DNA of 64,000 nucleotides from Cyanidioschyzon merolae. Lineage: Eukaryota. Location of the stretch: the NCBI GenBank assembly GCA_000091205.1, contig AP006492.2. The stretch is one strand, 5' to 3'. The position numbers and the translations under genes are program-made. The first letter of the stretch is position 1; every line of letters begins with the position of its first letter. Below the pieces are notes generated by a model. It was not told the DNA's origin. It ran no database searches and was given only the letters and a program-made list of their open reading frames with translations. Positions 3,001-52,750 of this stretch are shown piece after piece.

Positions 3001-3443
3001 CGGTGGTTCATCCATCTGGTTCATGTGAAATAACTGACTTAAGCAATAAATCCCGTTTTTCGCGAGAGACCAGTGACACCATCGATTCCTTCCTCAACCA
3101 TTCCCCAATCTACAGGATACGTTTCTTCTGTTGAATTCCTGTAAGAAAAACAAACAAAAGCGGAAAAGCGTGCACTGATAAGAGCATTATGCAAGTCACT
3201 ACGCTTCCCCTAACGCTAGGCTCCGAACACGACCGCGACGGTGTATTCGCCTCGGTGGTCTTCGCTCTGACCCCAATCCATGGAAGCGAGCCGAATGCAT
3301 GTACATCGAGACGCAGCGCGTTCACGTGGTCAGCATATCCAGAGAAGCAAACCTGATGTGCGTAGACAGCTGAGGAGGCGTCGCTGCATCGGCTGCTGGG
3401 GCGCAGATTTTGCCCATTGTTGCAGCGCGGACAAGTGTTCCGA

Positions 3444-4035
3444 ATTCTCGAAAATTTACCTTCTAGGTGGAAGGTCTCGCGAGCCGGACGAGCCTGCCGG
3501 GCATACGCCCTGTGCGCCTCTGCAGCGACCGATGCTGTAGGGAGATCTCCGCTGCCCCTCGGCAACGTAATCAATCTGGGGCTCGCAGCGAGTATGCTGC
3601 GTTTCCGCGTCGCGCAGGTCGCAGAGGACTCCGAGCATATCGCTTCGCGCTATCGCAGGCAATACGTCTGTATGCGCATCTTGCAGGCTCCCTGAATGAC
3701 AATGAATCCCGAATCCATATCGTGCAGAACACGCCTCGAGCCGACGCCCTCTGTGGTATAGAAAAGCCGTCCTACGTCCGTGATGCATCCGTACCAAAGG
3801 TAAAGACGCCACTGCGGACTATCAGGGCAGGCATTAGGTGTCCGATAGAACGTAGGAAACGACCAGAATATCCGAGAAAAAGTATAGGTAATGTAACATG
3901 GAAGTAGGGCGTTTGAAGGATACTTCACCTCGCACTAAAAAAACACAAAAAAAAAGTAAGAAAAGAAAAATGCGCGTGATCGGAGAACGCTGGCACAAGT
4001 ACACCTTTTGTCCATGAAAAAAAAATCGGTGCTTC
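3444..4035 (+). repeat. Solo copy R1 of interspersed 'H+T' repeat family: head module (attctcgaaa..ggaaggtctcgcgagccggacgag) plus A-rich tail (cactaaaaaaacacaaaaaaaaag..atcggagaacgctgg..gtccatgaaaaaaaaa)
   Basis: Nucleotide similarity read directly to copies at 9033-9650, 13230-13700, 19176-20020, 41290-41660(rc), 51300-51730(rc); shared head 'ttctcgaaa.t.tacctt.taggtg.aaggtc.cgcgagccggacga' and shared tail 'atcggagaacgctggc..gttttgtccatgaaa'. No ORF. SINE-like (A-rich 3' end). Confidence 0.6.
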
Positions 4036-4435
4036 CAATTCTGGACACAGGTGGTGCTGGCGCAGCATCGCACAGCGCGCTCCATCAGCATGCCGCGGCA
4101 CACCGCGCGCCGTGGGCGCCACACACGCGAGCGTCTGCTCAGCGCGCTGCGCGGCACAGGAATCCAGATGCATGCGGTCTGTTGTTTTTTTTGATTGTTC
4201 GTTGCTGGTGGTCGCGTCTCGGCTGCAAGTTGCATATTCTTCGTGTCGGCGTGGTTGTGGGGTGCGTTCTTCCACTGGTACTAGAGGACAGGTTGTCAAT
4301 CTTGGTCGCTGACGACGAAAGCGCTCTTTAAGGGTTAGGCGCTGCGCTACTAACGCGGCACGCGTTTGACGGCAAGCTCTCTGCACCAGATAGGACGCTG
4401 CGGCTGCACCGACGCGTTCGCTTCGGCGTTCGTGT

Positions 4436-6151: not shown

Positions 6152-6398
6152 TCCATTGAGGTCCCTACGCTTTACTTAGAGCTTTTCGTTCGCTTTTAAG
6201 CCGAGACGGCAGGTTGCGCAACGTCATCGAGTTGTAGACGCGCACGAATAGCGAGTGCTTATTTCTCGACACGATGAAACTGGATTCGGAAAATAGATTC
6301 ATGAACTAAAGAGTGAACTGATTCCCGATGGAGGCCGAACGCCGTTCGAAAGTCGAACGACGGCAGTGCACCGTAGTGGCGAGAAGGCCGCCCTAGAC

Positions 6399-8674
6399 TT
6401 AACGACTCCAACTGGCGTACTGACGCTTCCTAGGCTTTCTGGACCGGCCACCCACTACTGATTCCAACTTCTTCTCATATAAATCAACTTTGAGAGGTTG
6501 TCCAATAAAGTTCTCTCGTGTCCGCTCTGGAGGTCTTTTCTCCAGCACCGCGCATCTCCTGATATTGATAGCGGCGTTGAAGTCTCGGTTAACGAACTCC
6601 ATACGCTTCTTGCCATCATTGGTTGTACATACTAATGCAATGAGTCCACGAACTTTTGCCTTCCGTTCCATTTGCTCTCCCGTCAGCGGTCCGTACTTTG
6701 CAATTTCCTCAGGACTCCTCTGGCACTTTTCCATCTCCAGGCTCTGGAGTGTGCACCCCAGTTCATGATGTGTATAAAATGTTCGAAACTCATGGATCGG
6801 TATTGTGACAAAACGCCGTGCACACTCCTTGTACGTTCTTGTCGTCGGAGCTGGCAGAGTTCCTTTTTGGGTGTTCCATCGCCCTGCTCCGTACGCTACT
6901 ACAAGCCTCTGTCTTTCATCCTTCTTCGAGGCGCTCAACTCATTGAAAAAATTCGCGAACGCCCGCTACCTCCCACCATATAGATTCGTACGCAGACGAG
7001 CCCACCGGGGCTCTGTATACTCCTCCCACAGCGCCTCCCAATGGGCAACAAGAACTTCCATGAAATTCCGAAAAGCTGTAAAGTCCGCTCCTCGGCTCGT
7101 CACCTCGCTCATAGCTTCAAGGTGATCCTTCATTCCTGCGTTCCACGTAACGATTTTCTTCCTTGCATTCATTATACCGGATTCTCGGTAGTATCTTGCT
7201 CTGGAGAACCTCCAAAGGCGCATGTCTTTCTGACGTAATTTGCCGTCAGTACCATATTCCGCACGCTTCGGTGCTGTGATGGTTATGATATTCGTGTTCC
7301 CAGGGTCTGCGCCGACGACAAAGTCGTTATCTTGGACTCTCTCCGTCGCAGGACCCGCCTCCTTCTTTTCTTCATGTTTCGCCGCGCCAACGACAAGGTC
7401 GTTATCCCGCACCTCCTGCATTGCAGGACCCGCCTTCTTCTCATCTTCATCCTTCGTGACGGGCGCAGCCAAAGGCGGACCAGCACGATCTTTCTACAAC
7501 CGCCGATAGTGTACACACAAGGCTACTCCATCGGTTTCGATCAACCCAGTGAACCACTTTTGCTCGCTCATTTTGAGACGTTTGAAATTGAAGATATTCT
7601 TCCAGTACGTTTCCCGGTTTTCATCGGAGAACTCCTCCCTGTTACCATTGAACTCCGGACTGATCCCCTTCATGATGCCGTAAAGGACTCTGGAGTCGGT
7701 ACTCACGAAATGTGACTTGATGTTGCACATTGGAACGACGTTGAAGCGCTTCCCCATTGGGACAGCCTTCCGTCTCTCCCACTCTTCATTTTTTTTCCCC
7801 ACTCAGCTTCATCTCTGCTTTGCGCTCGAGTTCTCGGTCCATGAACACGAAATACCGTACGACGAGGCGATCGTATCTTTCCTTATCTTTTTTCATGTCT
7901 GATATCTTGTCTGTTGGATTCGCCAACCCAGTACCGCACGATGCTCTTGAATAGCCGCACGGATTACAGAAGCTTCATTCGTGCTCTCGTTTGACGCCTT
8001 CTCGTCGACAAATTCGACCTCATCTTCACGCTTGCGATCTTTCACGATGTCGTTGATAATCGCCCATTTCCCATGGCGAGAGATGCCCTGGTACAGCGCA
8101 AACACGGCGCGTATCATGAAACGTTCGGGGTTCACTGTCAAATGGTTCTTCAGATTCGTGAAGTACTTCATTGCCCCGTCTGTGTAAATATCCCCGTCAC
8201 CCTTGTATCGAGTACCCTCGAGGCTGTAAAAGGGATGTTTTTCGTGGAGAGCATGCACTAGCTCATTTTGCCTCCTCGTTTCCCCTGTACCAAGCATCAG
8301 GTAACGAATAAAGTCTTATCGAAAAACTCGTCCGGAATCTCGACCGTTTCCGTGTGCGTCACGTCTCCGTACATCTCCCTCGCCAAATGAATCAATCCTG
8401 ACGACACCTCGACAACACGCTTGGAGTACGAGTCGACACGTTTTGCTGATACCCTCTCGCAACTTTTCCCTCTAGGGATCCTTGATATGTCCAAGACGAA
8501 AAGGTTTTCACCATAATATCGTCGTGCTGTCGTCTTTCCTGCAGCTTCTGACGTTGGACCTCTCCGTTTTGCCTCTTCGTCTTGTATTGTGGCTCCGGGC
8601 TTGGTACTTTTGTTCGTTTTTTTTCTGGCAGCCGGCGACACCTGTCTTCCAGGATCCTTCATTTCCATGTCCAT
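6399..8674 (-). pseudogene. Disrupted Fanzor/TnpB-like nuclease ORF (copy A): frameshift at ~8297, frame break 7802-7893, in-frame stop 7494-7496, ~69-bp tandem duplication at 7290-7450, frameshift 6938-6966
   Basis: Pieces align colinearly to copy B, but sit in different frames or are separated by stops. Start ATG 'MDMEMKD' at 8674; stop TAA at 6399-6401. Confidence 0.65.
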
Positions 8675-8900
8675 AGCTTTCCTTTGTTATTTTTTTGAAG
8701 AAGAGCGCACATGAAACGCGTTTGCTGTACACCGCGGGAAAGCACTTGAGTACACGCATTTGAGGGTTGAAACACGGTTGCACTGACAGACTATACGCTG
8801 CTAGGGCTTTAATGCAAATACAACTCGTACGTTATAGCAATACGCTCATATTAAGGATCGCGTTTCCCAGTTACGGCAAGATGCGCTTTGCGTCTCATGC
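6399..8900 (-). mobile_element. Fanzor/TnpB-like (IS605 OrfB family, RuvC nuclease) element, copy A, including conserved 5' noncoding region (8675-8900) and 3' region
   Basis: Conceptual minus-strand protein assembled from ORFs 8297-8674, 7893-8297, 7494-7802, 6966-7472, 6399-6938: RuvC-I '[13 protein letters not shown]' (Asp ~7306-7308), 'TSRGADF', 'RLVVAYGAGRW', Zn-finger region 'EFRTFYTHHELGC..LVC', RuvC-III 'VNRDFNAAINI' (6571-6597). ~50-60% aa identity to copy B at 41969-44094. Confidence 0.75.
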
Positions 8901-9032
8901 ATGCCAGATATGGAGATGCGCGTCTTGACTGCGCTCTAAAATAAAGAGCGGATAGGAACCTCTAAATACCAACTATATAACAATTTCTGGCCCCGCCTGC
9001 GATAAACGTTGAAAAAGGGAAAAGCTTACGGT

Positions 9033-9650
9033 ATTCTCGAAAGTATACCTTTTAGGTGCAAGGTCCCGCGAGCCGGACGATTCTGCCAGGGTTGTGCCTC
9101 ATGGTCGCCGCAGTGCTTCGTGCTGTAGTAAGATCTGAGCAGTTCGTCCGAAACGCAGTTGATTCTGGTACTCGTAGCGGGTATGCTGCACGTGGGCGTC
9201 GCTCTGGTCGCAGTGGACTCCTCGAATATCGTTTCGCGCTGCCACCGGCACTACGTCCGTCTCTACTGTTTCCACGCTCCCGGAATAATAATGTACTCCA
9301 GACCACGTGTCGGATGCATCATAATTCGATCCGACGCCCTCAGAAGCATGGAAAACCCGCCCTGACTTCGTGCTGCATCTGCCGCAGCGGTCTGACCGCA
9401 GACGCGGGTGCCCCAGACAGGCAAGACCCCCGATAGAACGTAAAAGAACGATCAGTATTTTCGAAAGCAAGTCTGAATGATAGACCTTGGTACACCAGCA
9501 TGACGAACGCTTTGTTTCGATTACCAGTACGCATCCCGCAATCTGGGATCCTTCGTCAATGGAACCGGTTTATCAAGAGTAGAGAAGATCACAAGCAGCG
9601 TGGCCGCCGCCTGCCTGACACAGCGGCTACACGGCCTACAGCATTGCTGT
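9033..9650 (+). repeat. Copy R2 of the H-module repeat (no A-rich tail), abutting the 5' end of Fanzor copy A in divergent orientation
   Basis: 'attctcgaaagtataccttttaggtgcaaggtcccgcgagccggacgat..gctgtagtaagatctgagcagttcgtccgaaacgcag' matches R1/R4/R5; downstream 'gcatcccgcaatctgggatcc' matches internal part of R4 (19690). Confidence 0.55.
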
Positions 9651-13229: not shown

Positions 13230-13700
13230 CGTCAATCAATCGCCGGCTTCGCGTACCGCGTTGCACCCGAGCGCTAGCATCTTGCGTGCGTTGGGGTGCG
13301 CGCGCCGGCACGCACCTCTCGATGCGTGCCGGCGCATTCGGGCGGGCGATGCTGCGAGTAACGCCTCTGCTGCTGCCGAGCATGCAACAGGCGATGCGTC
13401 CTCGAGCCGACGCCCTCTGTATGGTACGGCAACGCCGTTCTGTCTCCGTGCAGGGACCGCACCGGCGCTATAGGCGCTATTGCGGTCGCCGCTTTCGGCA
13501 GGCACTAGGCACACACGATAGGACGTATGAGATGACCAGAATATCCGAGATGAAGGATAGGTAATGTAACGTGGGAGTAGGGGATTCGGTGGATACTTGA
13601 CCGCGCACTGAAAAAATAACACAAAAAAGTAGGAATAGAAAAATACGCATTATCGGAGAACGCTGGCCTAAGTAAACGTTTTGTCAATGAAAGAAAAACT
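13230..13700 (+). repeat. Solo copy R3 of the H+T repeat family (5' part diverged or truncated)
   Basis: 13395-13700 aligns with R1 3735-4035 ('cctcgagccgacgccctctgt..agaatatccgagat..ggtaatgtaac..cactgaaaaaataacacaaaaaagtagg..atcggagaacgctggcc..gttttgtcaatgaaag'); weaker match back to ~13230. Confidence 0.5.
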
Positions 13701-14761
13701 GGCAACACGTATGATGCAGAATGACACGGTGGGCGTGCTTGCCCCGATGGTATCTCGCGTTTGGCGTCGAGCCCTGGCGTGCGTCTGTGCGTGCCACGCG
13801 CGTCACGTAAGCGATACATGATGCTGGTGTGTGCCTCTGCCCACGGGACGCTCCCGTGTCGAACGGCGGGCCGCCTTCACGAAGCGTCTGCGCGGAGCCA
13901 ACACCCAGGTGCCTCCAGAAGGGTACGCAGAGACCAGTTGACCTGAGGCAGCGCTTGCGCCAGTACGGACGCGTTTCTGGTGCATGACCGCAGCGCTACC
14001 CCTATCGGATACTTGTCGTTGGTGTTGGTCGGCACAGCGAGCCGTACGAGTGTGCGTTCCGGCGCCTGTCGCGCTCAAGAGAACCCTGTATGGATAGCGC
14101 CAAGCGTGCGATACCCGGTTCCGAGGCCAGCTTCCATGACGCCGTATAGCCGTCCCGCCTCTCCGTCAGGCAACAGCAGCAGCGCACCCGGCTGCACAAC
14201 AAGTATCTACGATAGGCTCTGCATTCGTGAGGTCGATGGATCGCTCGAACCCCTATATCCCAGATAATGCCTTTTCCATACGTCGTGCTGTACATCCATC
14301 TATGGACAAGAAGTGTACTCGATTCCGCACCTGCCTGCGGAAAGCGCCGCCAGCACCAGCAGCTCGCGCGCCCTTGTTATCATGGTGAAAGTTCAATGAA
14401 ACGTTCCACGGCATCCGCCAAGCAAAGTCGTTCTCAGCATGACGCAAGACGTGCACCAAGCTGCACCAGCAAAAATTACCGCTCATGCTTGCCTGTGGAC
14501 GTCTCATCTTGGTGTCGCGCTGGATCATGATACCGGTTACCTGGCGCGCGAGATGCGCCAGTGCCACACAGCGGCGCGCGTGTGGCCAGCACGACGCCCC
14601 GCTCCGCCTCCCTGCCCTGAACGTATCGTGTGTCGAGGGGCAGGCATCGCTGCGTACTAGCACTGGTACCAGGTGCGAGCAGTCCGGTGTGACTTCGCTT
14701 TCCAGGCGTACGGGTGTTGTGTCTGTGACGATACGCACGGTGGTTTGCAAAAAATCGCAAA

Positions 14762-18545: not shown

Positions 18546-19175
18546 ACAAGGAGTGCCCGATGTCGCTGCTCAAGGAACGTGTCGATGACGCCCTATGCAA
18601 ATACACGCGGGTACATTGGACACGATTTCGCGTGCGCCGCTCTTCAAACATACACTCTTGGGAAAAACCTTTTTCACGCAGGCGCCGCTGCTTGGTAACC
18701 TATCGCGCAGCAGTGATCCAGCGTGTCTCGACCTGACACCTTCATTCATGAACCCGCGCTTCATACCAAGCAGCAGAGCATGGAGCCAGAATCTCTGTTA
18801 TCCGACGCTGTCTGCATAGAGGAGTGCTCGCATGCAACCTGCTGGCGCATGTGGATACGCGTTCTTCACAGCTTTCTGCCCTTGGACTAGTCTACGGGCG
18901 TGCGCGCTCACTTTCCCCGAAAGTCGATAGAGCAATCACTCGACGGCACCAAGCGTCGTCATTCTTCGCGGGAAACGTCGTCTTCGCTTCGATGGTTGTC
19001 GACAACAGTCGCGCATCCAGGGGATACTGGTACCATGCATCAGTCGCATGCAATCAGTGAACACACTGAACGAGATACCAGAAACAAAACGAGAGAAACC
19101 AAATTCTAACTAGCGTCTAGATAAGAATGTCGTTCAAACTTCACGGTAAGCATTGACAGGGAGACGTTTTCCGCG

Positions 19176-20020
19176 TATTCGAGTGTTACGCTTCTGGGGG
19201 CAGGAGGCCCCGCGAACCGGACGAGTCTACCGGGCTTGCGCTCCGTGTGCCTCTGCATTGCCGGGCTCAGGAGCAAGACGCAAGGAACTCGTTCGCCACG
19301 CAGTTCATTCTGGGACTAGGAGCGGTTGGGCTGTCTCTGGGCGTCGACCTGGTCACGGAAGTCTCCAAGCATATCGCTCCACGCTGCCGCAAGCTGAAGA
19401 GCTGGCTGCGCAACTCGCACGCTCCCAGCAGGACGAAGAGGCCGGATTCCTTGTTCAATGAACCACGCCTCGAGCCGACACCCCCAGTGGTGTGGCAAAG
19501 CCGTTCTGACTGGGTGCTCCATTCGCACCGGCGGTACAGACGTTACGGTGGGTGCTCACTGGATGCGCTCAGTCCACGACAGATCGTATCGAGCGACCAG
19601 TCCATCCGAGAGCAAGGATCGGAGATGGAACTTGAAGGTACACTGAAGAATAATGGACGCTTTTCTTAATCTCAATATGCATCCCGCAGTCTAGGATCCA
19701 CGCTCCAAGTAAACGTTCTGGATGAACAAACGCAATCCACAAGGGTCGTCTGCGCCGCTGTGCCGCTCCGGGAACGCGGCAGCGATCCATGCAATCGCCC
19801 AGCTCGCTTGCAACGCATGGCGATCGTCCCGGAGGCGCGGCCGGAGCGGCAGCTCAAGGCAACGAAGGGCGAGGCGAGGCAGCGCGGTGCGGCAGGCGCC
19901 ACCGGCGGCGATCGCATCGATCACATGCACCGCGCACTGAAAAACCCCCCAAAAAGAAAGGCAAAATGCGCATCATCGGAGAACGCTGGCCTGAGTGAAC
20001 GTTTTGTCCATGAAAAAGAA
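19176..20020 (+). repeat. Solo copy R4 of the H+T repeat family (longest copy, ~845 bp, extra internal segment)
   Basis: Head 'ggaggccccgcgaaccggacgagtctaccgggc', body 'cacgcctcgagccgacaccc', tail 'cactgaaaaaccccccaaaaagaaaggcaaaatgcgcatcatcggagaacgctggcctgagtgaacgttttgtccatgaaaaag' match R1/R3. Confidence 0.6.
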
Positions 20021-23187: not shown

Positions 23188-23794
23188 CACAAGGCGACGT
23201 CGTCGCTCGTCTTCGCGAAGGGCACCAGCATCAGGCGCCGTCGTCTCGGACGCACGCGTTGCCTTAGTTGCCGTCCCGCGAGAGACCGCCTCGCGTGCCG
23301 TAAACACCCACAGCGAGTCCAGCTGTCGCAGCGGCGGACGCTGACGCTGACCTGCAGCCGCCATGCCAGCTGCAGTGTCCGCGGATGCCGCAACCTCAAC
23401 CGCTCGGTGCCGGAGTTCCGAAACTGACCCCTCTCCGAGTCTTGTTTACGAGTCGTTCCAGGGCTCCCGCCAGTCGGTCGCTGCTGCGGAGCCTCGTCAA
23501 CGAGCGCTGGGTGCGCGGCCCCAGCGACTACGCACGAGACACCGCGAAACGCTGCACGCAACGAGTCAACCAGCTTCACTGCAGCCGCAAGCGCCTTGAG
23601 CCCTTGCTCACTGGTGATAAACCGGGCTTGACAAACGGAACACTCGTTGACGGGTACGCAACGCACACGCAGCAGCAGAGGCACACGCCTACCGCCGTTC
23701 CATCGCAGCGACACGGCGGCGTGCCGGGCGAGGCGGCGCCTTCGATCGACTGCCGCGCGATGCGTAGGCGCGCCGCCTCGCCCGGCACGCCGCT

Positions 23795-23995
23795 GAGAGT
23801 GTGTGTGCTTGTGTATCTGCGTCTGCGTCTGTGTGCTTGTGTATCTGTGTGTCTGTGTGCTTGTGTGTCTGTGTCTGTGTCTGTGAGTGTGTGTGCTTGT
23901 GTGTCTGTGTCTGCGTCTGTGTGCGTCTGCGTCTGTGTGTCTGTGTGCTTGTGTGTCTGTGTCTGTGTCTGTGTGTCTGTGTCGGGATACAGGAA
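23795..23995. repeat. Compound GT/CA-rich microsatellite (gtgtgtctgtgtgcttgtgt..)
   Basis: Read directly; intergenic between the cyclin start and the GAPDH 3' end. Produces spurious poly-HT/CV ORFs on both strands. Confidence 0.7.
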
Positions 23996-35799: not shown

Positions 35800-35980
35800 G
35801 TTGCATGCATGCGCTTGCACACGTGTCCATGCATGCGTGACCATGCATGCGTGTGCATTCAATGCATGATCGCTGTACGCGTGTCCATGCATGCATGCGC
35901 TTGCACACGTGTCCATGCATGCGTGTGCATTCGATGCATGATCGCTGTATGCGTGCTTGCGTGCGTGCGCGTGCACGAAG
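35800..35980. repeat. Tandem repeat (~70-80 bp unit x2-3) rich in palindromic CATGCATG / GCATGC motifs
   Basis: 'gcttgcacacgtgtccatgcatgcgtg..catgcatgcgtgtgcattc[a/g]atgcatgatcgctgta[c/t]gcgtg' repeated; read directly. Confidence 0.6.
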
Positions 35981-40817: not shown

Positions 40818-41289
40818 CGCACACGTCCTCTCAAGCGCTCTCGTTCGTCGAGGTACTCGGGCACTGCACGAGCGAATGTGTGCAGTAGTTGACTGCGCCA
40901 GGAACGCACTACGAAACGACTTGCTCAAGGCGGCAGTCCGTAACGTTACTGCACAGAACATGAGTAATAAGCGTCGTCCCGAGGGTACGAAGTCGTCTGC
41001 GGCAGTCGACGACTGGCGGCGACGCGGCGATTGCGGCGCTTCTGGTTGACGATTTCTCTTTGTCTTGACAAAACGTTTACGTTGACCACGGATCACAGAC
41101 TGCGGGATGGATATCGGTTGTCGACAAAGCATCTGTCATACTGCGCCCTACCTCCAAACTCCATTTCGCATATCTCCTTTCGGATATACTGGCTGTTTCG
41201 CACGTTCCATCGTGCGGCGGTTTCTGGCTTTGAGCACCCGCCGCCGCGCCCCAACCATTTACACGGATGCATCACGGAGGCAGACTGAC

Positions 41290-41660
41290 ATTGCCATACC
41301 GTATGAGGCATCGGCTCGAGGCGCCGTTCCTTCAACACAGACTCCACGTGCATAGTCATTCTGGGAGCCTGCAAGTTCCGCACCCAGACGTACTGTCTGC
41401 TGCAGCGCGAAGCGAAATACCAGGAGTCTACTGCTACCAGGGCGACGCCCAAACACAGCCTAACTGCCCCTAATCCCAGAATGATTTGCGTTTCGGACGA
41501 GCTGCTCAGACCTCACTACAGCACCAGCTACTGGGTAGCGTACGGAGCGCCTGACCCGCGGACTCGTCCGGCTCGCAGGACCTTCCGCCGAAAAAGTAAA
41601 CGTTCCGCAGTATGGAAAACTTTTCCTCCTTTTATCGTTCATCGTAGAGAGGGAATGAAA
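41290..41660 (-). repeat. Copy R5 of the H-module repeat (no tail), abutting the 5' end of Fanzor copy B in divergent orientation
   Basis: Reverse complement reads 'gaacgtttactttttcggcggaaggtcctgcgagccggacgagtccgcggg..gctgtagtgaggtctgagcagctcgtccgaaacgcaaatcattctgg..acgtctgggtgcggaacttgcaggctccc..cctcgagccgatgcc', matching R1/R2/R4. Confidence 0.55.
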
Positions 41661-41759
41661 TATATATTTGCTGGTAAATCGAGAGTCTCTGTACAATTTT
41701 TTCATATAGCGCGTTCCATACGCGCACCCGGGAGATCAGGCCGTCACATGACACGACGG

Positions 41760-44160
41760 GCATGACGCCGCTGAAGAGAAACGTAATATGGACTTGTTGA
41801 CCTGTTCCTCGAACGTATGCGTTGTAACGGTGTTGAAGTCAGAGCAAAATACAGTGTTTGATCTCAATACTATTTCAACCCTCAATTGGTTGTTCCCAAA
41901 AGCTTTTTCGCGGTTTACAGCACAAGCGTTCAAAGTGCGTTCGTTTTCGAGAATAAAAAAGGAAAGTTATGGACAAGAGAGTCGAGGCCTGCGGAGGCCA
42001 CGTGTCACCAGGTTCGACAAAACACTGGAAAACAGTGCGGGGCCCAGAGCGACAGGAGAAGGGGAAAGAGCAAAACTGGGAGCTCGCACATCAACTGCAA
42101 CTCGAAAGACGATACAATGACGAGAACGTAGAGAGAGCCTGTCTTCCAGGCCATCTCAGGGCTCCTTACAGAGAAAAGATGCAGGAGGGCATCAGAAACC
42201 GCGTCCTATCGTAATCCAGGAGTATTTGAAAAGCTTCTCTTTGATTGATGCATTTGGTGAGGGACCTTTACCATGACGTTACGGACATCAAAACAGTCGA
42301 GGTTCCGGAGGAGTTTTTCAGTGTGACCTTCATCCGCCAACTGATGCTTGGCCCAGAGCGAACCTCGACGATAGACGATCGAGTGCGAGCCCTACACCAA
42401 ACATATGCCTTCTACCGCTTCAACGGTTCTCGATACAAGGGTGACTTGGGCATTGACACCTACAGGGCGATGAAGTATCTCGAAGACTTGAAGAGCCACC
42501 TGATCGAAAACCTCGAAAGCTTCATGAACTGCTCCGTCTTCGCGCTCTACGATGGCCTCTCTGTCCGCGGGAGATGGGCGATCATCAATGGCATCACGAA
42601 CGATCACCAGGATGAAGCGGAGATAGAATGCTTCGGTGCGAAAACATCGTACAGGTGTACGTATGAGAATTCTGTGATCTGTGCAGCCATTCAGGAGCAC
42701 CTTGCGGTACCGGGGCTTGTCAACCCTGCAGAAAAGGTATCAGAGATGAAAAGAGATACGAAAAGATTCATCCCCTCATTCTGCGCTATTTCGTGTACCT
42801 GAACCGAGAGCTCGAACGCAAGGCGGAGATGCAGCTGGGTGAAAAACGAAATGGAGCGCCGGAAAAACGGAAGGCTGCGCTTCTGAAGAAGCGCTTTCAC
42901 GTCGTTCCGATACGCAACACCATGTTGCACTTCGTGACCATCGACTCCAGCGTCCTTTACGGCATGATGCAGGAGATCAGTCCGAAGTTCGACGTCAGCT
43001 CGGAGGAGTTCACGGGGATAGACTGGGAGACTCATTGGAAAAATGTCTTCGATTTCAAAGGTATCAGGAAGAGCAACACAGAAGCATTCGCAGGCAAGAT
43101 CGAAACCGATGGGGTATGCATATGTGTACACTCCAGGCGCTTGAGCAGGCATCGTCATATCCTGTCATCGTTTTCGCCCTGGACGAAGCATCAAAAGAGA
43201 GAGGCGATCCATATGCTGTACGAGCCGCAGAAGAGCGACTTTGTCGTCGGCGTGGACCCTGGAAAGAAGGATATCATGGCCGTCGCTGTGCCATAGTATG
43301 CAAAAGACGGTATCAATGCCAACTTACGCCAAATGGACATGCGTATGTTGAGGTTCTCGACGGCTAGATTCAACAGAGAGTCGGGGATGATAGGTGCCTT
43401 GAGGCAAACCGAGGCTTGGAACTCAAGATTGAAGGAGCACCTGGAAGCGGTCAGCAAAGTGACGAGCTGCGGAGCGGACTTTCGGACCTATCTGGAATTC
43501 ATGGAAACGCACGCTGCGCATGATGGGGACCTGTGGAAGGAGTACATAAAGCCCCGATGGGTTCGTCTGCCTATGGACCTGTACGGAGGGGAGCAGCGTG
43601 CATTCGCCAATTTCTTCAATGAGTTCTGCGCCCTCAAAGAAGGCAAGAGTCAAAGGCTCGTAATAGCGTACGGAGCAGGGAGCTCGTTGCCCGAAAACGG
43701 GAGCACACCGGCACCGTCGACACAAGCGTTCATCGAGTGCGCAAAGCGTTTTGTCACTGTCGTAATAGTCGAGTTCCGAACGACCTGCGTGCACCATGAG
43801 CTGGGCTGTACACTCCAGAAGGTCAGGATGGGGACACAGCCGCCGAGCTCTTCGGGGAAAGAAAATCACGGGGAGCGAACAGAGCGGCCGATGCCACAGA
43901 GGGCGCTAGTTCGAGGACGCCTTCTGTTGGACACTACAGTCAGCGCCATGAAACGCAGGGAGTTCGTGAACCGAGACTTCAACGCCGCCATGAACATCAG
44001 GCGATGTGCTCTGCTGAAGACGAGACCCCCGGAGCTTACGCGAGCGAACTTCGAGGGTAGCTTCCCGGGCTCGACGTGTGCTGGGGGAAACTGAATCCGA
44101 CAGCAGTCGACCGGTCAGAAAAGGATGGGAAGCGTCTGCGAGTGGGGAGATATATATTAA
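41760..44160 (+). mobile_element. Fanzor/TnpB-like (OrfB family, RuvC nuclease) element, copy B, with conserved 5' leader and 3' noncoding region
   Basis: ORFs 41969-42214 / 42245-42802 / 42793-43296 / 43333-44094 are colinear with copy A. RuvC-I 'DFVVGVDPGKKDIMAV' (43247-43293), 'TSCGADF', 'RLVIAYGAGSS' (43666-43680), 'EFRTTCVHHELGC', RuvC-III 'VNRDFNAAMNI' (43969-43995). Upstream 41810-41968 is ~80% nt-identical to 8675-8860(rc). Confidence 0.75.
41969..44094 (+). pseudogene. Fanzor/TnpB-like nuclease ORF (copy B), nearly intact: one frameshift near 42748-42795 and one in-frame TAG at 43297-43299
   Basis: '..IMAVAVP*YAKDGINANLRQMDMRMLRFSTARFNRESG' aligns to copy A '..[36 protein letters not shown]' across the TAG, so the stop replaces a sense codon. 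Start 'MDKRVEAC' ATG at 41969. Confidence 0.6.
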
Positions 44161-45099: not shown

Positions 45100-45812
45100 A
45101 TGGTTCATAAACTAACCGATACCAATATGCAATGCAGACCCACAAGCCTTCAGGGTTCTTGTTTCCTAGCGTGCAGCATGCGCACACCGTGCATACTTCA
45201 AGTTTTCGATTTTTCAGGCACTGGGAAAACAGTGAGTGCAGTGATTCGCGCCAGCGGACTGAGGTGGAAAAGTAGTCGACACCGTTTCTTGATGGCATTC
45301 GCACAAGCTCATTCCATAAGCTTACTGAACCTGGTCAAGCCCAGTAATCAGTTCCGCTCGAAAAACAAGTCATCCCCTATTTGGGGCCATCATCCCCAAG
45401 AGAAACCCGTCATCGTAGTGGGCGTTCACGAACGCGGAAACCGGGGTCGTCATCGAGGATGGCCCCAGGTACCCCCCAGACGACGTGTACTGAGCGTTGC
45501 AACAATCGTGTACGCAATGCAAAGTAGCCTTCGGACGAGCGTGTATGCTGGACGTACGGGAAGACCTGTCCAGTGTCAAGTGTGACCGCTGCGAAGCGGA
45601 CACCGACGCTGTATACGAATGAGCTGACTGTAGCGAGCGACGTGTAGGTGGCAACTCGCGCTTGTGCATGAAATGCGTCAACAGCGGCTGCGGGTGGCGA
45701 AACCGACACTTTCTACATTGCCATGAACGTCCATTGATTGCCAACAAGGGAGCTGGAGAGACAGATGAGACCGACATTGTTACAGCCGCGGATACGAGAC
45801 AGGAATGGAAGC
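45100..45812 (-). repeat. Left copy of an inverted repeat pair (~0.7 kb); core 45250-45812 is ~97% identical to the reverse complement of 59224-59790
   Basis: The reverse complement of 'acaatgtcggtctcatctgtctctccagctcccttgttggcaatcaatggacgttcatgg' (59264-59323) is 45721-45780 exactly; ~8 mismatches per 320 bp in the compared core. Outer ~150 bp more diverged. No long credible ORF. Confidence 0.75.
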
Positions 45813-45948
45813 AGTCGGAGAAAAAGCCTGTATAGGCTGCTACTCAGGACAATGGAGTAAATCACACTTTAGGGCGTATGCCCGATGTAGCTCTGTGAAC
45901 CCGTTCCGTTTCGTACTGACACGAGCGTGTCGCGGCCGCCTTTGCTTT

Positions 45949-50632: not shown

Positions 50633-51299
50633 GGTGCCCTGGTTGTATACTCAGATAAATAAATACTTGAACACCTGTACCAGCACGGCTTTCTTTGCTA
50701 TACCTTTCTTACCTCGCGAATATTCAACAAAAGGTTGTATCCCGTAGGTGGGAGAACGGTCGCGGGAACACTTCCTGCCGTCTGTGCTAGCTTGCCAAGA
50801 AAACGGTCTTTATTGTCCATGTCAGGTATTCTCTGGTCGGCAGGTAGATCAGCCGCTGTTCTCGTGGTCCTTTTGCTGCAAGTCGTACTCACCAGACAGA
50901 GCACATTTGGCTCTGTCTGCACTGCATTCCCGACATGAATGCGTTCCACTCCACATATATTATCTGCGAAATAGCATCTAAGAGACACAAGGTGTGCAAT
51001 CTCCGCACAGTTGAAACGGACGGTGATAAAGGGACGCACACGGACACAGGAAAAAACGCGCCTCTGTGCGAGAACGTTCCGCGCTGAGCTCCGTGCTGCC
51101 AGTTTCGCGGGGGCATGCGAACGCTTATCGTGCAGATGGCAGATGTTCGTCACACTCGATGAGACCTCGTTCGGGAGAAACGGGAGACATGTGTACGGGC
51201 ACCCAGAGCGGGAGCAACAAGTGTTCACAGAGAAGCGACACACGCGCATTCCGAGAGTATCTGCCCAGACGGCGACTGAGTCGTATGTTTTGCTTTGCG

Positions 51300-51730
51300 T
51301 CGGAAAACGGGTCGAAGTCTTGAACGCCTCATGCTTGTTCTTCGCAGCATTCCACGGCGTCTCGTTCTTACACGGCTCCGTGCGGCTCTGCGTCAACGTC
51401 GCTTTCCATCACCCTGAAGAGGTCAACGAGCACGCAGGTGACATTGGCGCTGCGCTGTTCCTCGTACCAGCCTATTCGCCCCGGTCGAGTTCAGTCGAAC
51501 GCATCTGCTCTGTTGGCGAACGCCATTTCCATGGGCACCAATGCGCAGGCGAGTCTTTTACATCCGCGACTCGGTTCGATGGCGAATCGTTCTTCGACAA
51601 TGCGTTGTCTGCTATTGGTGCACAGGAACTGCTGTGTTGCTGCTCGGCTCGTGGGCGGAAACGAGCGGAAACGAGCTCTCCGGTCGGTTGGGGCTCCCAG
51701 TTCGAGAAAGGTGAGGAATGGATCCTCAAG
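51300..51730 (-). repeat. Copy R6 of the H-module repeat (diverged), abutting the 5' end of the Fanzor copy C remnant in divergent orientation
   Basis: Reverse complement 'cacctttctcgaactgggagccccaaccgaccggagagctcg..gagcagcaacacagcagttcctg' parallels R2/R4 head 'taccttttaggtgcaaggtcccgcgagccggacga..gagcagttcgtccgaaacgcagttgattctgg'. Weaker than the other copies. Confidence 0.4.
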
Positions 51731-51849: not shown

Positions 51850-52750
51850 TAGTTAAGGGGCACAAGAAGAAGGAACTGGTATATATAAGCATCAACGTTG
51901 CGTTCGAACTACTTTGCAAAGCGCGGTGGCGGCGCTCGGACAAGGTTTCTCGATAACAGGAAAGAAATACCGGAAACGTTTATCCGGACGATGGAGACCG
52001 ACGGGATGCCAACCAGCATGCACCTTGCAGCACGTATGCCAGAGTCGAGCAGCCAGACTCATTTCCAACCGTTCAAGGTTGATGAACAAACAGAGACTTT
52101 GTGGTCGGGGTCGATCCGTGTCACTCGGCATCATAGCCGTCTCCGTACCCCTGCATCAAGAGGGCAGTGCTAAAGACCTACAAGGAGAGCAGATAAAGCA
52201 GCTCGAATTTTCCAGTGCTCGATATGATCGGCAGTCGGGCATGGTAGACGCCAGGCGGCATACCGTCCAGAGGAATGGTTGCTCGAGAGCCCATCTCGAC
52301 GCCCTGAGGACGGTGGCGCGCAGAGGGTAACGCTTTGTGCGCCTCATGCAGAGGGGGAGCTCATGAGCGTCAAACTGGCTCCAGCGGACGATCTTTGACA
52401 AGAACGCGTGGTGCCGAGCAGGGCACGCACATGGTGCTGGCTCCGCAGAGGCGAGAAGCTCGTGTTCGCAGACTTTGTGGTTGATGTGGGAAACGAAGTG
52501 ACCGCCCAGTCGGGTCGATTGACGGTAGCCTATAGCGCTGGACCTACTCCAGCTCACAAAGTCTGCAGTGATGCTCGCTCCCGTCGAGAGCTTGCTACAA
52601 GTTCAGGGATTGATTCTGCACGATTTCGACCGACGCATTCACACCGTCATGCACGCAGCACGATCTCGGGTACAGGCTGAAACTTGTCGAGAAGAGGCGA
52701 TTGAATTAGAGACCGTTGCACGAGATGGTGTGCGATACGCTGCTTGAACG
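51850..52750 (+). pseudogene. Degenerate remnant of a third Fanzor/TnpB-like copy (C)
   Basis: Frame-hopping matches to copies A/B: 'FLDNRKEIPETFIRTMETDG' (51930-51990) ~ 'FDFKGIRKSNTEAFAGKIETDG'; 'DFVVGVDP' at 52097-52120; 'LEFSSARYDRQSGMVDARRH' ~ 'LRFSTARFNRESGMIGALRQ'; 'RLTVAYSAGPTP' ~ 'RLVVAYGAGRW'; 'SARFRPTHSHRHARS' ~ 'HEFRTFYTHHELGC'. Confidence 0.55.

Follow-up and report, generated by a model that had tools for sequence, protein, structure and literature searches.

The 159 nt at positions 41810-41968 of the window analysed here (a 64,000-nt stretch of nuclear DNA of the red alga Cyanidioschyzon merolae 10D, contig AP006492.2 of assembly GCA_000091205.1) lie directly before the ATG of a Fanzor pseudogene, named copy B, and resemble the sequence before a second Fanzor pseudogene on the opposite strand, named copy A. 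Our analyses indicate that this conserved stretch is very probably the non-coding 5' part, with an end hairpin, a probable promoter and a short leader, of a known and now dead Fanzor repeat. We are equally confident, short of certainty, that the likeness of A and B stems from common ancestry and not from selection on these copies. The repeat family and its Fanzor gene were already described in 2013 as CMe-1A, a Fanzor1 element of C. merolae with ~150 copies that are ~80% identical to a consensus of ~3 kb (Bao & Jurka 2013, Mobile DNA 4:12, PMC3627910).

The match between the two leaders is far above chance. An earlier note on this DNA had reported it at ~80% nucleotide identity, and a blastn search against the whole window indeed found a significant alignment upstream of the ATGs, in which A 8772-8677 matches B 41810-41968 with 76.0% identity over 96 nt (E = 3e-14). 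The local alignment of B 41810-41968 with A reached a score of 76, compared with 17.3 ± 2.5 in 1000 approximately dinucleotide-preserving shuffles (z = 23). All the shared strings quoted in the note are present before both ATGs, with tttcaaccctcaa located at B 41874-41886 and A 8772-8760, and the 'gcttt..cgcggt.tacagca' block and 'aaaggaaag.tatgga' directly 5' of the ATGs at B 41969 and A 8674. The match is thus real and the figure of ~80% too high: identity is 68.3% (110/161 columns) over the full B 41810-41968 (A 8835-8675), and reaches 75.5% in B 41873-41968, or ~76% over the ATG-proximal 96 nt of the blastn match.

The flagged 159-nt interval is no distinct island of conservation. In a global alignment of the two copies, identity is 55-77% per 100-column step upstream of the interval (B 41015-41809) and 54-77% over the aligned columns of the open reading frame (ORF), except for one indel-rich block produced by a length difference of an internal tandem repeat. 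The homology is limited by B ~41015 and ~44120, beyond which identity is 24-42%. In the self-comparison of the window, A 7497-9257 aligns continuously with B 43143-41387 at 69%, and A 6508-7326 aligns with B 44051-43236. The total A/B homology covers ~3.1-3.3 kb, and the flagged interval is one slice of it. Since the leader is 68% and the ORF 65-70% identical, the upstream stretch is as similar between A and B as decaying coding sequence.

Both copies are dead Fanzor pseudogenes, and in 74 sampled copies of the family the ORFs that start at the ATG reach at most 283 codons. The differences between A and B are spread nearly evenly over codon positions, except in the C-terminal third (0.27/0.30/0.44). 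The comparison of A with B gave 556 transitions and 485 transversions, with no strong signature of a bias like that of repeat-induced point mutation. The sequence of core B continues, rearranged, to about 44300.

Motifs, together with the modelled fold of a relative, identify the encoded protein as a Fanzor1. B carries the RuvC-I motif VVGVDPGKK and the RuvC-III motif NRDFNAAMNI, which reads NRDFNAAINI in A; the DPG and RD motifs are invariant in the alignment of relatives. A RuvC-II candidate, DEFRT[ST]YTHHE, is conserved, and the usual CxxC pairs are not obvious (THHE..GC...EKC). The AlphaFold model of the intact relative P0047 (40% identical to B; predicted local distance difference test score, pLDDT, 78.8) resembles SpuFz (8GKH and 9CEU), GtFz (9CER) and PpFz (9CF1) with E-values of 1e-13 to 1e-15 and template modelling (TM) scores of 0.54-0.69, and Cas12f ranks far behind the Fanzor structures in the same fold search. 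The C. merolae Fanzor proteins have no Pfam match at E<0.01, PF07282 (TNB/zinc-ribbon) matches the distant relative P0096 alone, and a profile search of Protein Data Bank (PDB) sequences gave no match to the Fanzor proteins. Two further features were observed within the ORF. The zinc-finger region expected between RuvC-II and RuvC-III (VDEFRTSYTHHELGCTLQ..EKCQR; A ~6700-6800, B ~43700-43800) shows no obvious CxxC pairs of the usual kind, and a 75-nt (25-aa) tandem repeat lies just before the RuvC-I DPG (A 7309-7456, core ~1470-1690), its copy number ranging from about 1 (in B) to 6 among copies.

The anatomy of the repeat was derived from many copies. A protein search with the C-terminal 447 residues of B returned 96 relatives, and a scan of metagenome contigs yielded 80 loci, of which 44 distinct full-length copies were used here. 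Because these contigs come from near-identical strains, whose orthologous regions, A and B insertions among them, match the window at 98-100%, the metagenome loci are in effect other genomic copies of the A/B family. Across the 44 copies, the Fanzor core comprises a leader of 260-262 nt, an ORF of about 720-790 codons and a 3' tail of ~50 nt, and family homology at the 3' end stops after ...GTCGTTCGACTTTCGAACGGCGTT. The mean pairwise distance among the copies is 0.21, and identity to their own consensus ranges from 0.82 (leader) to 0.90 (codon position 2). The A/B leader identity of 68% is accounted for by the neutral decay of two copies that each have an identity of ~80% to the family's consensus.

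The 5' edge of the core is sharp. Copies that bear a TE-N2_CMe-like head were used to build a hidden Markov model (HMM) covering 1150 nt upstream of the ATG. The head-bearing copies match this model over its whole length, and so do two of them that had not contributed to it. Homology begins at HMM position 891-909, mostly 893, in 25 of the 41 distinct loci, and at 874 in one further locus; among all copies without the head, two begin at 874. The start of the core thus lies 260 nt 5' of the ATG (B 41709, A 8934). The element boundary proposed earlier, ~B 41760 and A ~8900, was near this edge, 50 and 34 nt off respectively, and does not hold as the end of the A/B element: homology runs ~650 nt further, to B ~41015-41055 and A ~9608-9619, because both copies carry the head. 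The coordinates of the parts are collected in the table.

Table. Features of the two Fanzor copies and of the associated repeats in the window.
Feature	Position	Strand	Remarks
Flagged stretch, ATG-proximal 159 nt of the non-coding leader, copy B	41810-41968	+	68% identical to A 8835-8675
Full leader of copy B, 5' segment of the Fanzor core	41709-41968	+	Common start among copies; stops in all frames
5'-terminal GC hairpin of core B, GCGCGTTCCATACGCGC	41709-41725	+	DNA fold -8 kcal/mol, z -2.7
Decayed TATA-like box, copy B, GCGGTTTACAGCAC	41910-41923	+	Family consensus GCAGTATATAACAG; ~57 nt before the ATG; 44-copy alignment
Fanzor1 pseudogene, copy B	41969-44094	+	Several frame changes, one in-frame stop; DPG and NRDFNAAMNI motifs
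Leader of copy A	8675-8934	-	Terminal hairpin 8934-8918; decayed TATA-like box 8734-8721
Fanzor1 pseudogene, copy A	6399-8674	-	Frameshifts and at least four in-frame stops
3' tail of core A	6338-6398	-	Hairpins 6393-6378 and (terminal) 6361-6338; homology stops after ...TCGAACGGCGTT
TE-N2_CMe-like non-coding head (~650 bp) on core B	41055-41708	+	HMM ~228-890
TE-N2_CMe-like head on core A	8935-9608	-	HMM and A/B alignment
Solo TE-N2_CMe-like copy, no Fanzor core	19062-19781	-	nhmmer, HMM 186-905, E 3e-122; fades at ~870-890
TE-N2_CMe-like copy beside an older DDE_3 + Fanzor relic	3419-4042	-	nhmmer, HMM 217-816, E 2e-115

As for function, a left-end hairpin followed by a promoter appears to be the best-supported reading of the leader, in agreement with the earlier suggestion of a transposon left end or promoter: a non-coding 5' region and a probable promoter of a Fanzor-bearing element are supported. 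In the active ancestor, the first ~17 nt would have formed the terminal hairpin of the left end of the element. A compact promoter was probably provided by the TATA-type box, ~57 nt before the ATG, and the T-rich and A-rich tracts that follow it, and the last ~25 nt would represent a short A-rich 5' untranslated region (UTR) ending in the start context AAAAAGGAAAGYT-ATG. Hairpin, promoter and 5' UTR together would have driven Fanzor nuclease expression. Most of the 44 copies carry the arrangement TTTTTTCGCAG-TATATAA-CAGAAGCGTTCAAAGAGCGTTC-T(5)-C-A(7)..AAAAAGGAAAGYT-ATG-AAAAAGCAA, with TTTATAG in place of TATATAA in one subfamily, and the position of the box and the A-rich tract are consistent with a compact TATA promoter with a 5' UTR of ~25 nt. 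Most copies have hairpin potential at this 5' place. The GC hairpin comes in two variants, GCGCTCAGTGAGCGC and GCGCGGTCGATACGCGC, with fold energies between -5.4 and -8 kcal/mol and z between -1.8 and -2.7. The strongest fold potential of the 5' region was observed inside the ORF and not in the leader, at core ~277-308, codons ~5-16 after the ATG (B ~41985-42015, A ~8658-8628; mean -10 kcal/mol in 26-nt windows, 43 copies).

Several points weigh against this interpretation. The fold support of the 5' hairpin is modest at these z values, and its two variants pair in different registers. The TATA-like box itself is mutated in both A (GTGTACAG) and B (GTTTACAG), and the putative promoter, start site and 5' UTR are read from motif and position. 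In none of the sampled copies is the ORF intact from the ATG on, which leaves no link to be drawn between activity and the integrity of the leader. Furthermore, the identity with CMe-1A and TE-N2_CMe is taken from the published description and not from an alignment with the Repbase consensuses.

The conservation of the leader along its length was compared with that of the ORF. Identity to the family consensus in the 44 copies is 0.776 for leader nt 1-60, 0.80-0.81 for nt 61-180, 0.848 for nt 181-220 and 0.877 for nt 221-262, and the codon positions 1/2/3 give 0.890/0.904/0.836. The divergence between the consensuses of copy groups was taken as a proxy for change in the active lineages. Unsupervised clustering of subfamilies gave one star-like cluster with B as an outlier, and the groups were set by upstream module instead. 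This divergence is 0.10-0.18 for leader 0-180 and 0.025-0.115 for leader 180-262, and 0.017-0.047 for codon positions 1/2 and 0.063-0.098 for position 3. The Fanzor protein was thus under purifying selection in the source lineages and the distal leader was not, and the last ~80 nt of the leader were constrained at most weakly. The non-coding constraint that the earlier note had offered as one explanation finds no backing in these data, with an A/B identity at the level of a broken ORF and a leader that, apart weakly from its last ~80 nt, stays below third codon positions. Comparison of near-identical strains gave differences of 0.8-1.9% in the A leader and 1.1-1.3% in the A ORF, with 0.1-0.7% in host genes and spacers. 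The orthologous copies of these strains show no sign of present-day constraint on the leader. The repeat copies A and B, compared with loci L084 and L090-L093, diverge more between strains (ORFs 0.9-1.3%) than host DNA, but the B leader is identical.

We weighed whether the leader could be under purifying selection in A and B themselves, for example as a cis-regulatory element or a structured RNA that is still used. Its last ~80 nt are slightly above third codon positions (0.85-0.88 vs 0.84), and in some subfamily comparisons the proximal divergence is 0.025-0.06 against 0.07-0.10 at third positions. However, A and B are pseudogenes whose leader identity equals their ORF identity, the distal 180 nt diverge faster than third positions, the strain divergence of the A leader exceeds the 0.2-0.7% of host genes and spacers, and there is no Rfam match in the window. 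We therefore regard ongoing selection on the leader as very unlikely.

Slightly less probable still is a guide (omega) RNA, or its promoter, encoded in the leader, with the RNA scaffold at the 5' end as in IscB. The first ~80 nt are GC-rich with hairpin potential, and omega RNAs are transcribed from the end regions of transposons (PMC10432273). In the characterised Fanzor loci, however, the right (3') end is the site of the omega RNA, which overlaps the stop codon or follows closely behind it (PMC10432273), and at this place the C. merolae core has two conserved hairpins with some compensatory changes. In the 3' tail hairpins 74% of the cells are paired, compared with 35-58% when the partner is slid, and 11 pairs carry changes on both sides, a value reached by 2/500 shuffles; the consensus fold of the tail is -14.2 kcal/mol (z -3.4). 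Covariation in the end hairpins is modest. By analogy with these loci, the 3' tail of core A would be the expected place of the 3' end of an omega RNA. Moreover, conservation within the leader is lowest in the structured part, and the flagged last 159 nt are almost without fold potential, one small hairpin excepted.

A segmental duplication of host DNA, with A and B not being copies of a mobile element, is again a little less credible. C. merolae has duplicated blocks, and the copy groups with long upstream modules (V and W, described below) resemble secondary duplications of composites. Against this stand at least 44 distinct copies with unrelated flanks, a common 5' start and 3' end that are both sharp, the different neighbours of A and B, and the ~150 copies given in the published account (PMC3627910). 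The least probable of the alternatives, which we think can hardly be correct, is a coding leader in the form of an upstream exon or, as the earlier note had also considered, a frameshifted N-terminal extension: a few copies have a long open in-frame stretch upstream of the ATG (up to 87 codons) and ORF 41788-42120 spans the ATG of B, but in the ATG frame the consensus leader is interrupted by 7 stops (the nearest at 4 codons upstream), 2-3 stops occur in the other frames, the open extension has a median of 10.5 codons across copies, the A-run varies in length by non-multiples of 3, the ATG context is conserved as a start, and there is no clear codon-type 3-periodicity in leader variability (0.165/0.183/0.201 vs e.g. 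0.185/0.094/0.075 in the ORF). The remark in the note that no single frame stands out in the shared stretch is borne out by this analysis.

The interpretation of the stretch as the 5' part of a dead Fanzor repeat is further strengthened by the comparison with CMe-1A. As described, CMe-1A has no terminal inverted repeats (TIRs), its target duplications are given as undetermined, and over its 5' 635 bp it shows 95% identity with TE-N2_CMe, a repeat of its own with ~70 copies (PMC3627910). A and B lie in the same genome (four ORFs of the window match exactly the C. merolae 10D proteins BAM80178, BAM80182, BAM80189 and BAM80191) and share with it a unit of ~3 kb (A 6338-9608, 3.27 kb) and a separable 5' head of ~650 nt. 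They likewise encode a Fanzor1, no TIRs join the ends of the A or B units, and their family has a consensus identity of 0.82-0.90 here vs ~80% published. Matched against the published description and not against the consensus sequence, A and B appear to fit CMe-1A in every respect compared. Some CMe-1A copies are described there as intact (PMC3627910), whereas 0/74 copies sampled here are. Beyond that description, as far as it was available, our analysis adds a sharply defined start of the core, 260 nt upstream of the ATG, its joining to at least four different upstream modules and the putative hairpins at both ends.

At least four different sequences were found upstream of the core start. The TE-N2-like head occurs in direct orientation in A, B, L001, L019, L023 and others, and in inverted orientation, with its other end abutting the core, in L046, L058, L011 and L079. 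A module named V is present in 11 loci, variably truncated and sometimes preceded by a Fanzor 3'-end fragment, and a module named W, of >890 nt, is found in 6 loci and bears an RVT_1 reverse-transcriptase ORF on the opposite strand. Three loci (L005, L012 and L013) have unique sequence in this place. The 5' flank ends in CAT for V, W and L012 and differs elsewhere. In the 5' region, A and B share with the DDE_3-linked copy L059 no more than the ~40 nt next to the ATG. The fragment preceding V (L020, L044, L017 and L074) is ~115-150 nt long and comes from the 3' region of another Fanzor core; the loci noted for W are L002 and L003. No empty, uninserted sites were found; in all strains examined A and B are present as orthologous insertions, with an identity of 98-100%.

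These arrangements may be explained by a core (~2.67 kb) that was formerly mobile on its own, TIR-less with a hairpin at each end, like IS200/IS605 in a eukaryotic nucleus, and that integrated site-specifically at the ends of other repeats (TE-N2 in both orientations, V and W). We consider this idea speculative and rather unlikely to be right. If it were true, the first ~20 nt would be the recognition hairpin of the left end and the outside CAT would be the target or target-adjacent motif (TAM). As in IS200/IS605 elements with TnpB (e.g. ISDra2 and IS608), a TnpB-family nuclease gene, no TIRs and putative hairpins near both ends are found, and the 3' end structure, where the guide RNA would end, is kept. 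In contrast, no Y1 transposase is known here and no such ORF was seen inside the A/B units, although no search was aimed at Y1 (HUH), and the C. merolae protein belongs to a eukaryotic host and has a long N-terminal extension with basic runs resembling nuclear localization signals.

The C. merolae family was also compared with the SpuFz1 loci of Spizellomyces punctatus (Saito et al. 2023). Both comprise a multi-copy Fanzor1 with a short non-coding 5' segment, the modelled fold of a family member (P0047) is similar (TM 0.6-0.69), and the two 3' hairpins stand in the place that corresponds to the omega RNA. Characterised Fanzor loci have conserved bases (CA) just outside the left end (PMC10432273); these are CA in SpuFz1 and often CAT in C. 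merolae. The SpuFz1 loci are bounded by 30-nt inverted repeats, whereas the C. merolae units have none, and the SpuFz1 'ghosts' share the ends and the omega-RNA region, whereas the ~650-bp companion repeat of C. merolae has no terminal similarity to the core. A third comparison concerns Tc1/mariner (DDE_3) elements with Fanzor1: in four contigs (L095-L098) a DDE_3 transposase gene immediately precedes that of P0047, whereas A and B have no transposase gene, DDE_3 similarity or TIRs, and have another 5' region.

The head of ~600-650 bp is a family of its own, with four copies in the window plus a fragment at 13399-13705, and solo heads outside the window in L018, L055 and L058. The possibility that it is a gene was rejected by tblastx, in which all six frames are equally conserved, as in non-coding sequence, and a structured RNA found no support in RNAalifold on the four copies, the covariation term on either strand being positive, which is unfavourable. 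The idea that the head is a 'ghost' with the same ends as the Fanzor core was discarded, only chance 8-10-mers being shared. Each of the four TE-N2-like copies has its place shortly upstream of a host gene and turns the same end to it; the genes are the bZIP gene (4436), an ORF at 9600 followed by OBG (10446), SAS-6 (19995) and HisRS (41132). This placement may reflect an insertion preference for the 5' flanks of genes or the donation of promoters; four cases are too few to tell.

These results carry little weight as a discovery, with a family known since 2013 and both copies dead. For annotation, the flagged stretch should be labelled as an internal 5' non-coding part of a CMe-1A-type repeat and not as a conserved regulatory element or a repeat end. 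C. merolae, an alga that can be transformed, is almost free of introns, and the core start, modules, end hairpins, TATA-like box and start context could help in reviving a C. merolae Fanzor or in finding its guide RNA.

The window otherwise contains long uninterrupted host ORFs (bZIP, ABCA, HisRS, patatin, malic enzyme, FAN1 and SAS-6, among others), and scans of it with Rfam at gathering thresholds and for tRNAs gave no match. Two further decayed elements are present, each with a DDE_3 relic directly upstream of a Fanzor relic: 50987-51634 and 51946-52466 on the plus strand, and 3119-2263 and 1956-1024 on the minus strand. The DDE_3 relics match a DDE_3 protein by tblastn with E-values of 5.5e-27 and 2e-14, and no TIRs were found at the ends of the two elements. 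These relics are older than A and B and heavily decayed. A 643-bp inverted repeat, 95% identical between its arms at 45176-45817 and 59864-59224 (~13.4 kb apart), brackets the patatin, AFG1, malic enzyme and FAN1 genes, and its ORFs have no Pfam match. Short tandem duplications with a period of ~88 nt, 79-91% identical, lie at 23793-23982 and 35802-35976, inside host ORF regions.

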